From positions 1 through 41,079 of IMG/VR virus record IMGVR_UViG_2778261579_000010: a DNA stretch of 41,079 bases; one strand, written 5' to 3'. How positions within the stretch are numbered: position 1 is the stretch's first letter; every line of letters starts with the position of its first letter. This document shows, one piece after another, positions 1,009 to 39,831 of this stretch. A program made the position numbers and the translations under genes. The stretch is from a virus (Duplodnaviria; Heunggongvirae; Uroviricota; Caudoviricetes). The notes beneath the pieces were generated by a model. That model saw only the letters and a list, made by a program, of their open reading frames with translations. It made no database searches and was not told the origin of the DNA.

Positions 1009-1083
1009 GTCCTCTTAGTTAAATGGATATAACGAGCCCCTCCTAAGGGCTAATTGCAGGTTCGATTCCTGCAGGGGACACCA
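1009..1083 (+). tRNA. argW: tRNA-Arg (anticodon CCU), prophage attachment tRNA
   Basis: 75-nt cloverleaf: acceptor GTCCTCT, T-arm GCAGG-TTCGATT-CCTGC, anticodon loop CCTCCTAAG, 3' ACACCA; matches argW as recalled. Confidence 0.85.
1069..1083 (+). repeat. attL core (CTGCAGGGGACACCA) at the tRNA 3' end
   Basis: Exact 15-bp direct repeat with 39376..39390; the next base differs (T here, G at the right end). Confidence 0.8.
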
Positions 1084-1196
1084 TTTATCAGTTCGCTCCC
1101 ATCCGTAGCAGTCCGCAAAATCCCCTGAATATCAAGCCTTCCGTAGATTCACAGTTCGTCATGGTTCGCGTCAGATCGTTGACAGCCGCACACCAT

Positions 1197-1246
1197 GACG
1201 GGTAAAAAGTGGATAAAATAATTTTACCCACCGGATTTTTACCCAT
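1197..1246 (+). promoter_or_regulatory. Candidate integrase arm-type sites (GGGTAAAA / TTTTACCC motifs) in attL
   Basis: Three copies of the motif within 50 bp just upstream of int (cgGGTAAAAag, aaTTTTACCCac, tTTTTACCCat); the same motif recurs twice near attR. Confidence 0.3.
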
Positions 1247-2402
1247 GCTCACCGTTAAGCAGATTGAAGCAGCAAAGCCGAAAGAAAAACCATACCGCCT
1301 TCTCGATGGTAATGGCCTGTACCTTTATGTCCCTGTATCCGGGAAAAAGGTATGGCAGCTTCGCTACAAGATTGACGGTAAGGAAAAAATACTGACCGTA
1401 GGAAAATATCCGCTAATGACTTTGCAGGAGGCAAGAGATAAAGCATGGACCGCGAGGAAAGACATCTCGGTTGGCATCGATCCGGTAAAAGCGAAAAAGG
1501 CTTCGTCTAACAACAATTCCTTTAGTGCGATTTACAAGGAATGGTACGAGCACAAGAAGCAAGTCTGGTCAGTAGGCTATGCAAACGAACTTGCCAAAAT
1601 GTTTGACGACGACATTTTACCCATCATCGGCGGCCTTGAAATTCAGGATATTGAGCCGATGCAACTGCTGGAAGTAATCCGCAGATTTGAAGATCGCGGT
1701 GCAATGGAGCGAGCCAACAAAGCCCGCAGAAGATGCGGAGAGGTTTTCCGTTACGCTATTGTCACCGGAAGGGCTAAATATAACCCGGCACCTGACCTTG
1801 CAGACGCCATGAAAGGATACCGCAAGAAGAACTTCCCGTTTCTTCCTGCAGACCAGATCCCGGCATTCAACAAAGCACTGGCAACATTTTCAGGAAGTAT
1901 CGTATCGCTTATTGCGACTAAAGTTTTACGCTACACCGCCCTAAGAACGAAAGAACTTCGTTCCATGCTATGGAAGAACGTCGATTTTGAAAACAGGATT
2001 ATCACCATCGACGCCAGTGTGATGAAGGGTCGCAAGATTCATGTAGTACCGATGTCAGACCAGGTAGTTGAACTTCTCACTACGCTAAGCTCAATCACCA
2101 AACCAGTATCAGAGTTTGTTTTTGCCGGGCGCAACGATAAGAAGAAGCCAATCTGCGAGAACGCGGTGCTACTTGTGATCAAACAAATCGGCTATGAGGG
2201 TCTGGAAAGCGGTCACGGATTCAGGCATGAATTCAGTACGATTATGAACGAGCACGAATGGCCTGCTGACGCTATTGAAGTGCAACTTGCACATGCCAAC
2301 GGCGGATCTGTGCGCGGGATTTACAACCATGCTCAGTATCTCGATAAGCGCAGAGAAATGATGCAGTGGTGGGCGGATTGGCTTGATGAAAAGGTGGAGT
2401 GA
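1245..2402 (+). CDS. intS: Tyrosine recombinase, P4-family prophage integrase (IntS-like)
   Basis: ORF directly downstream of argW; N-terminus MLTVKQIEAAKPKEKPYRLLDGNGLYLYV and C-terminal HGFRHEF...H..Y catalytic region typical of P4-type integrases; the first ATG gives 385 aa (an in-frame GTG at 1209 would add 12 codons). Confidence 0.9.
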   Translation: MLTVKQIEAAKPKEKPYRLLDGNGLYLYVPVSGKKVWQLRYKIDGKEKILTVGKYPLMTLQEARDKAWTARKDISVGIDPVKAKKASSNNNSFSAIYKEWYEHKKQVWSVGYANELAKMFDDDILPIIGGLEIQDIEPMQLLEVIRRFEDRGAMERANKARRRCGEVFRYAIVTGRAKYNPAPDLADAMKGYRKKNFPFLPADQIPAFNKALATFSGSIVSLIATKVLRYTALRTKELRSMLWKNVDFENRIITIDASVMKGRKIHVVPMSDQVVELLTTLSSITKPVSEFVFAGRNDKKKPICENAVLLVIKQIGYEGLESGHGFRHEFSTIMNEHEWPADAIEVQLAHANGGSVRGIYNHAQYLDKRREMMQWWADWLDEKVE

Positions 2403-4384: not shown

Positions 4385-5320
4385 TCAGTAGTTATGTACT
4401 GAAGGAGGTAATTCTTTATTCTTAAGTCTCATCCATGCGGAAAGATTCGCTGGTCCGTCTGGCTCATTAATATCAACATCTCGTGTGTGATTAATTAAAA
4501 CGTCTCTCGCCATTCCGATAACATACGAGAACTCATGACCGTAGTCGTAGCATCTCCCGGAATAGTTCGATTGAATTTGTTTTAATGCCGGATACAGTTC
4601 GCGGAATAATGCCTGTGAACGGTTGGCATAATCCCATAACCATACAAGGCTGTTTGCTTCTTTTGCAGAAAGCTCGTCGGTTTTCTTCTCTTGTTTGCCA
4701 ATGAACTCACCTTCAAGTGGAACTCGAGCTGCAAGTGATAGTGCTTCGGTAAACTGCTCCTCACTGATCTCTTTGTACGAACATCCAAAATGGGATTTCA
4801 GTGACGACCACATGGTGATCATCGCCTTAGCCTGTTTTTCTTTTGGCAGAGACTGACCGCGACTCATGACGAGCTGTTTAATGGCTTCCTGCTGTTCAGT
4901 GGTGATTTTACCCGGCAACGCCTTTTTAGCTTTGCGTGGATTAACTACATGGCCTTTAGTCCAGTAGTCATGCAGCACGCTAAAGCATTCCTCCTGGTAC
5001 TGAATCAGTTTATCACGGATGTCAGCACGAACTTTCTCAGGGTTGATGCTGAACAGCCATCCATTTAACTTCTTCAAAGGAAGGCAGAGTAGCTTACGAA
5101 GCTTCCCATCAGCGGCAACCATGTTCATATGAACACAGTTGAATTTGCTAATCTGCTTCATGAGTTTTGTTTGCTGCGTTGACCAGCTCATTCCAAGGTT
5201 TTGAACGATTGGCTTCATCGCAACATATGCAACTCCGGCAGCCATAGCGGTGATAATTTGCTGACCGTTGAATGGTACGTAAGAGGTGTTCACTGCTTCT
5301 AAAATTGCTATACTATTCAT
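4385..5320 (-). CDS. ant: Antirepressor Ant (P22 immI type)
   Basis: N-terminus [43 protein letters not shown] matches P22 Ant as recalled; preceded by arc; start taken at the ATG with an upstream GGAG (the ORF extends in frame to 5386). Confidence 0.8.
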
Positions 5321-31285: not shown

Positions 31286-32638
<1,353 letters not shown>

Positions 32639-39066: not shown

Positions 39067-39082
39067 TTGCAGGTTCGATTCC
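39067..39082 (+). repeat. 16-bp copy of the argW T-arm segment (TTGCAGGTTCGATTCC) upstream of torI
   Basis: Identical to 1054..1069 of the tRNA; together with attR it reproduces the last 30 nt of argW, split by about 293 bp. Confidence 0.7.
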
Positions 39083-39101: not shown

Positions 39102-39302
39102 ATGCAACACGAACTACAACCTGATTCACTGGTTGATTTGAAATTCATCATGGCCGATACTGGCTTCGGTAAAACCTTCATCTACGACCGGATTAAGTCC
39201 GGCGACCTGCCAAAAGCCAAAGTTATCCACGGGCGAGCAAGATGGTTATATCGTGACCATTGTGAATTCAAAAATAAGCTCTTAAGCCGCGCCAATGGGT
39301 AA
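39102..39302 (+). CDS. torI: Excisionase / recombination directionality factor TorI (AlpA-Xis family)
   Basis: 66 aa MQHELQPDSLVDLKFIMADTGFGKTFIYDRIKSGDLPKAKVIHGRARWLYRDHCEFKNKLLSRANG; matches TorI of KplE1 as recalled; sits next to attR. Confidence 0.85.
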   Translation: MQHELQPDSLVDLKFIMADTGFGKTFIYDRIKSGDLPKAKVIHGRARWLYRDHCEFKNKLLSRANG

Positions 39303-39319
39303 AATAGCGGGTAAAATAT
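39297..39319 (+). promoter_or_regulatory. Tandem GGGTAAAAT motifs near attR (candidate Int/TorI binding sites)
   Basis: TGGGTAAAATAGCGGGTAAAATATT contains two direct copies; the same motif recurs three times in attL. Confidence 0.35.
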
Positions 39320-39375
39320 TTCTCACATCTAAAAAACACCATTCCAATCAATCCCCTGCCGCTTCAAGTAGATGT

Positions 39376-39390
39376 CTGCAGGGGACACCA
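39376..39390 (+). repeat. attR core (CTGCAGGGGACACCA)
   Basis: Exact 15-bp repeat of the tRNA 3' end (1069..1083). Confidence 0.8.
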
Positions 39391-39831
39391 GATACCCTTC
39401 TAACAATATCTACCTTCACCCCGTAAAAGATGGGTTTGGCAGCACACTTGCCCTATATCTACTCATTTTTACTGCAACAGGTTGAAATCTCAGCACTGTC
39501 AGAAAGCGCTGATGACTAAACAGCCCTGGGCCGGGCGATGTAACCATCATACAGAATCCTGATAGCGAAATATGGCGTGACTCGATACTTCACTCTGCAA
39601 TGCATTCCTTGATGAATTCGCAGGCCCGTGATACTCGGGACAGGTCGCTGAATGACGACAATGTCCTGGAAATCAGCGAACCGCGTATCCGGAGTACATT
39701 TGAGCGACTGTACCAGAACATGAATGAGGCGTTTGGATTAGGTGATTATTAGTTGGGCTAAGCATTTTTGTATTATTATTTTCCGGTTGAGGGATATGGA
39801 GATATCGACAACAACCGGAAAAAGTTTACGT

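Follow-up and report, generated by a model that had tools for sequence, protein, structure and literature searches.

The KplE1 element (CPS-53) of E. coli K-12 is a 10.2-kb remnant that has argW as its target. The primary mapping papers on this element, of 2007 and 2010, reportedly describe integrase binding and a requirement for recombination in K-12. In the K-12 attL, four arm-type sites for the integrase IntS are known as P′1–P′4, all of them containing TAAA and with P′1 lying over the −10 box of intS (PMC2951348). The TAAA words were mutated to ATTT, and Table 1 of that paper gives constructs for P′1, P′2, P′3 and P′4. The same work describes five sites for TorI, with the words GTTCG, GATCG and GTCCG, arranged in two blocks (I1–I2 and I3–I5) that reach the −35 box, as well as an intS promoter (PintS) with a −35 box of TTGACA, a −10 box of TAaAAa and primer-extension starts at 2464536/7. 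IntS represses its own promoter, TorI represses PintS via I4 and I5, and the efficiency of excision is highest in a narrow range of IntS concentration. Any mutation of the P′1 TAAA abolishes the promoter, and single mutations of P′2, P′3 or P′4 do not relieve autoregulation (PMC2951348). By EMSA, the five TorI sites are cooperative and are located on attL only (PMC3509656).

The arm-type sites of lambda Int (P1, P2 and P′1–P′3) follow a common principle, in which a heterobivalent integrase recognizes short repeated words in both arms, with sites for the recombination directionality factor (RDF) and IHF placed between the arms and the core.

The window analysed here is the whole of a 41,079-nt stretch of viral DNA (IMG/VR record IMGVR_UViG_2778261579_000010). 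The experimental data cited were obtained with K-12 DNA and protein. The recombination module in the window is the KplE1/HK620 module itself. Repeats of this module are annotated in the GenBank record of HK620 (AF335538), where ‘repeat_region attP’ features correspond to window positions 39296–39318, 1199–1220, 1220–1245 and 1613–1623, and Panis et al. (PLoS Genet 2010) treat the arm repeats as IntS arm-type sites (PMC2951348); the finding was thus already known. What is gained is that the K-12 work can be transferred, base for base, to the annotation of the att arms of a full-length prophage, that the idea of the repeats as TorI sites is corrected, and, as a modest extra, that the co-variation of word and integrase could guide the specificity engineering of P4-type integrases.

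The argW prophage and its attachment sites

A full-length P22-like prophage of the HK620/Sf6 type, ~38 kb in length, occupies argW in the window, in place of the remnant found in K-12. Genes for tailspike, DNA-transfer protein, coat, portal, terminase, primase/helicase, Ant and a CI-type repressor are located between the two cores. The genes and cores that frame the arms are as follows.

1009–1083, plus strand: argW, tRNA-Arg(CCT), the integration target (ARAGORN)
1069–1084, plus strand: attL core, CTGCAGGGGACACCAT, 16 bp forming the argW 3′ end (core quoted in PMC2951348 and found in the window)
1245–2402, plus strand: intS, tyrosine integrase (Pfam PF13356, PF22022, PF00589)
39102–39302, plus strand: torI (hkaC), recombination directionality factor (PDB, PHROG)
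39376–39390, plus strand: attR core, CTGCAGGGGACACCA, 15 of the 16 core bases (base 39391 is G, not T)

The attP is split here into attL, adjoined by intS, and attR, adjoined by torI, whereas in HK620, Sf6 and CUS-3, which are free phage genomes, the attP is contiguous. The attL region adjoining argW is carried by 1902 of 5426 complete E. coli genomes (about a third), and in HK620, Sf6 and CUS-3 the attL region is 97–99 % identical to that of the window; within the P′ arm, from core to int, identity is 97–98 % and motif positions are the same. From 39391 on, the host flank shows no relationship to its K-12 counterpart (dsdC side). Thus, the chromosomal surroundings on the right-hand side of argW differ from those of K-12, and the attR core is matched at 15/16 bases.

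The argW target, the core, TorI and the overlap with the intS promoter are common to KplE1 and the window. Alignment of window positions 1040–1300 to MG1655 revealed five differences (1108, 1138, 1150, 1170 and 1192), all outside the arm-type sites and none within 1197–1246, while 39279–39390 contains a single difference from K-12 (39360), located outside the motifs. Because the differences fall elsewhere, all of the repeated words described below are identical to those of K-12, at all four sites of the attL P′ arm and both of the attR P arm. In the comparison with published KplE1 sites that the initial annotation had proposed, 1197–1246 is base-identical to the K-12 segment in which P′1–P′4 have been described. 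Three of the five attL substitutions (1108, 1150 and 1170) lie inside the TorI-site blocks as converted to window coordinates.

Residues 2–86 of IntS match Arm-DNA-bind_3 (PF13356, E 2e-25), an N-terminal arm DNA-binding domain, and the protein matches PDB 2KJ8, a fragment of the CPS-53 integrase. Residues 2–89 align with the solved arm-binding domains 3JU0 and 3JTZ (E 2e-13 to 7e-16). These belong to the integrases of the HAI7 (3JU0) and HPI (3JTZ/3RMP) islands, which are different elements with different targets and arm words. TorI is a full-length match to PDB 1Z4H, ‘Tor inhibition protein’ (E 7e-43), and is assigned to PHROG 66, excisionase; a Pfam search with TorI returned zero matches at E ≤ 0.001.

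A repeated word in the attL and attR arms

Between argW and intS the exact word GGGTAAAA is found at 1200–1207 on the plus strand and at 1222–1229 and 1237–1244 on the minus strand, where the plus strand reads TTTTACCC. Two additional exact copies, both on the plus strand, are located at the end of torI (39297–39304 and 39309–39316). The initial annotation had reported three copies between argW and int (1197..1246) and two at the torI end, and all five are confirmed as exact copies, against 0.028 expected in the two arms from the rest of the window. GGGTAAAA is also the commonest repeated 8-mer in the two arms when words are counted without a prior motif (5 copies in ~240 nt). Across the whole window there are 10 exact copies, compared with 0.76 expected from dinucleotide shuffles, none of the 100 shuffles reaching 10, and 1000 Markov simulations produced no instance of three copies inside 50 nt (analytic expectation ~6e-7). 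The host flanks beside the cores contain zero copies of the word; the arms hold five exact copies and one with a single mismatch.

This sixth, degenerate copy, GGATAAAA at 1211–1218 on the plus strand, was retrieved by a one-mismatch search and had been missed in the earlier count of three for the argW–int arm. The attL cluster therefore consists of two direct and two inverted copies, the starts of which are 11, 11 and 15 nt apart, and between the −10 box and the intS ATG there are exactly four TAAA-bearing repeats, namely the three exact copies and GGATAAAA. The attR copies are both direct and 12 nt apart. Their earlier description as a tandem pair just after torI is right as to the direct pair, but the first copy overlaps the torI stop codon (TAA, 39300–39302). 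The complete site map, with published K-12 features placed by alignment or word match, is given below; conversion of the TorI blocks from K-12 to window coordinates is uncertain by ±1 nt.

1087–1115, plus strand: TorI site block I1–I2, GTTCG 1091–1095 and GTCCG 1111–1115 (PMC2951348; K-12 2464409–2464436 converted via alignment)
1150–1178, plus strand: TorI site block I3–I5, GTTCG 1154–1158, GTTCG 1164–1168 and GATCG 1174–1178 (PMC2951348)
1179–1208, plus strand: PintS promoter, −35 TTGACA 1179–1184 and −10 TAAAAA 1203–1208 (hexamers of PMC2951348, mapped by alignment)
1200–1207, plus strand: IntS arm-type site P′1, GGGTAAAA, overlapping the −10 box (word match, PMC2951348)
1211–1218, plus strand: IntS arm-type site P′2, GGATAAAA, covering the transcription start (one-mismatch search; P′1 to P′4 named in Table 1 of PMC2951348)
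1222–1229, minus strand: IntS arm-type site P′3, TTTTACCC on the plus strand (word match, PMC2951348 Table 1)
1237–1244, minus strand: IntS arm-type site P′4, TTTTACCC on the plus strand, abutting the intS ATG (word match, PMC2951348 Table 1)
39297–39304, plus strand: putative IntS arm-type site P1, GGGTAAAA, overlapping the torI stop codon (core offset −80)
39309–39316, plus strand: putative IntS arm-type site P2, GGGTAAAA (core offset −68)
39346–39358, plus strand: candidate IHF site, AATCAATCCCCTG, one mismatch to WATCAANNNNTTR (predicted from the sequence)

The words are very probably the arm-type sites of the heterobivalent tyrosine integrase IntS in a module of the KplE1/HK620/Sf6 type, with P1 and P2 direct in attR, P′1 and P′2 direct in attL, and P′3 and P′4 inverted in attL. 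The exact boundaries assigned to P′1–P′4 here should be taken as provisional. The intS transcription starts convert to 1214/1215, where the bases are T and A, matching the publication. A consensus promoter scan did not call the published PintS, since its −10 box, TAAAAA, has no terminal T, which the scanner requires.

Arm-binding or RDF sites had been offered together as the possible identity of the words, and the two parts of that proposal separate. Sites of an RDF are likewise short phased repeats in an att arm, and the pair at 39297–39316 adjoins torI, both of which speak for binding by TorI. However, the TorI sites of PMC2951348 (GTTCG, GATCG and GTCCG, at ~1087–1115 and 1150–1178) do not overlap GGGTAAAA, in which none of the three words is contained, EMSA places the five cooperative TorI sites on attL only (PMC3509656), and relatives change the GGGTAAAA word while keeping the GTTCG word. 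Recognition of the repeats by TorI is accordingly very improbable. The integrase part of the proposal stands, supported by identity to K-12, the P′ sites of PMC2951348, the Arm-DNA-bind_3 domain and the co-variation described below.

The copies might also serve solely as promoter or translation-start elements of intS, with no part in recombination. P′1 overlaps the −10 box, P′2 the transcription start, and P′4 abuts the ATG; moreover, mutations in the P′1 TAAA kill the promoter (PMC2951348). Against this, the opposite arm, 38 kb distant and without an int promoter, has two copies of the word, all of the arm copies, the P-arm pair included, change together with the integrase, and inverted copies are unexpected for promoter hexamers. 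A role confined to expression of intS is thus scarcely credible, and arm-type sites that also overlap the promoter are the preferred reading.

The attL set has passed beyond the candidate status first given to it, having been described and mutated in PMC2951348; for the attR pair, a more cautious standing is appropriate. We infer both the names P1 and P2 and the assignment itself, from the identity of the word, its fixed position and concerted change, and the extent of the minimal substrate. The pair at 39297–39316 is what we take to be the published P1 and P2 of KplE1 attR. A published primer, attR-IHF2, matches 39279–39298, so the attR substrate begins at 39279, 18 nt before the first copy, and both copies are therefore inside the 135-bp attR fragment that recombines in vitro. 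Published primers place the attL substrate at 1049–1268. The literature on Kapi1, ROD21 and mv4 gave no added information on attR sites. An exact IHF consensus is absent from the arms; an A-tract is located upstream of the candidate IHF site, and this stretch is conserved in the attP alignment.

The intS gene is without a recognizable Shine-Dalgarno sequence (1237–1247), and the P′4/ATG junction, TTTTACCCATG, is almost invariant among relatives. Since the last site abuts the ATG and the junction is nearly invariant, IntS bound at P′4 might also affect the initiation of intS translation.

Arm words among relatives of IntS

Nine phage attPs were aligned, comprising the rejoined window, HK620, Sf6, two Klebsiella phages, two Erwinia phages and two Salmonella phages. 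Six sites are present at fixed offsets from the core in all nine (−80, −68, +130, +141, ~+152 and +167), while the spacers diverge. At the P′2 offset relatives read G[AG][AG]TAAA. The Salmonella Emek group has an integrase with 54–55 % identity in the N-terminal region, and there five of the six sites read GGGCATA/GGGCACA, P1 switching to GGGCATAA and the P′2 position reading GGGCACAT; the sixth, P′3, reads GGTCATTT.

A scan of one genome per species gave 80 loci with IntS relatives, of which 60 relatives were classified. Throughout the 60 the layout persists, with a −35 TTGAC box followed by two direct and two inverted repeats, the last of them abutting the ATG, and the arm word tracks integrase divergence. 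GGGTAAA is found in relatives down to ~56 % integrase identity, and GGGCATA at 47–57 % identity (Enterobacter, Pantoea, Morganella and others). Single loci carry CGGTATTTT (Gilliamella, L056), GGGGCTT (L054) and GGGGGTA (L057), and two Acetobacteraceae loci (L063 and L066) carry CCGGGTAT. Among 32 distinct attLs of the GGGTAAA class, identity to the window is 0.98 at P′1, 0.80 at P′2, 0.92 at P′3 and 0.99 at P′4, compared with 0.58–0.75 in the spacers. The −35 box is 99 % conserved in the same attLs, and conservation extends to the GTTCG cores of the TorI sites.

Constant positions combined with a word that switches along with the integrase N-domain support arm-type sites; this behaviour would not be expected of sites recognized by TorI or a host factor. 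The co-variation of word and integrase is confounded by phylogeny, there being few independent switches. Binding of the words by IHF, Fis or another nucleoid protein, or an origin of the repeats by chance or slippage, would fit with the A/T-rich character of the words and with the natural collapse of P′3/P′4 seen in one relative (L015). Chance is nevertheless excluded by the shuffles and simulations, the word does not match the IHF consensus, and a host-factor site would not switch word with the phage integrase within Enterobacterales hosts. These origins have a negligible likelihood beside recognition of the words by IntS.

Some relatives have lost P′ sites through repeat collapse. In Escherichia whittamii (L015:821–903) one TTTTACCC is lost, P′3 and P′4 having collapsed into one, and the −35 box reads TTAACA; in Edwardsiella hoshinae (L058:821–903) one direct and one inverted copy are left. 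The P′ arms of both loci look like decaying or re-tuned modules. A further IntS relative, 78 % identical, was found in a MAG labelled Solirubrobacteraceae, an actinobacterium (L020, CAWCSS010000004.1). Its attL is Erwinia-like, GGGTAAA sites included, and the actinobacterial label is probably a result of mis-binning or contamination.

It is about an even call whether the arm words of the IntS (Arm-DNA-bind_3) family fall into discrete specificity classes (GGGTAAA, GGGCATA, CGGTATTTT, GGGGCTT/GGGGGTA and CCGGGTAT) that switch with a few N-domain residues (positions 16, 23, 38, 42, 49, 51, 54, 61, 72 and 75), with the geometry of the sites and their overlap with the int promoter remaining fixed. 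If this were true, the classes could yield a recognition code for the arm-binding domain, and could predict cross-reaction versus insulation of co-resident argW-type elements.

Proposed mechanism and additional copies

The mechanism proposed here is drawn from the lambda paradigm and from the layout in the window. The N-terminal domain of IntS (residues 2–86) would dock on P1/P2 and P′1–P′4, while the C-terminal domains would bind and cut the 16-bp core in the argW 3′ end. IHF may bend the P arm, possibly at the candidate site at 39346–39358. During excision, five TorI protomers on the GTTCG-type sites, between the core and P′1, would bend the P′ arm. Bridging of arms and core would then assemble the intasome, the details of such bridging being our inference. 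Occupancy of P′1 and P′2 would obstruct RNA polymerase both at the −10 box and at the transcription start; given that P′1 covers the former and P′2 the latter, the arm sites would also provide negative autoregulation of intS.

Compared with lambda, the word differs, as do the number, orientation and spacing of the sites. The RDF sites are on attL here rather than attR, and the arm-binding family is Arm-DNA-bind_3/DUF4102, of the P4 type. Unlike those of lambda, the arm sites double as operators, because int is transcribed from a promoter inside attL (PMC2951348).

Outside the arms there are five copies of GGGTAAAA, which ranks the word 13th of 280 words of the same composition (top 5 %). The copies at 4906, 31621, 32221 and 40462 were considered as further sites and rejected, as enrichment outside the arms is not compelling. 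Those at 31621–31628 and 32221–32228 are inside the CI-type repressor gene (31605–32237), one at its very beginning and one at its very end, and both read AGG GTA AAA (R-V-K). As the word is only in the top 5 % outside the arms, this pair is probably due to chance. The in-gene TTTTACCC at 1615–1622 in intS, for which the HK620 record has an attP-repeat annotation over the equivalent stretch, was likewise rejected as a site. It encodes I-L-P, the HK620 counterpart reads TTTTACCT, and the remaining relatives that retain GGGTAAA arm sites use different synonymous codons. With the DNA conserved in no relative, this copy is probably a codon coincidence.

Upstream of torI, at a distance of ~20 nt, the T-arm of argW recurs as an exact 16-nt copy, TTGCAGGTTCGATTCC (39067–39082). 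In argW itself these 16 nt (1054–1069) directly abut the core. By virtue of the upstream copy, the phage carries the argW 3′ end in two halves, ~294 nt apart, with torI and the P arm between them. The copy overlaps a feature that the HK620 annotation calls ‘pI promoter / cII box’, and a GTTCG word resembling a TorI site is found within the 16 nt. Erwinia phage Midgardsormr38 retains part of the copy (CAGGTTCGATTCC), and the Klebsiella phages lack it. This T-arm copy may be a remnant of an ancestral attP that was longer, or else may function as a site within the torI promoter.
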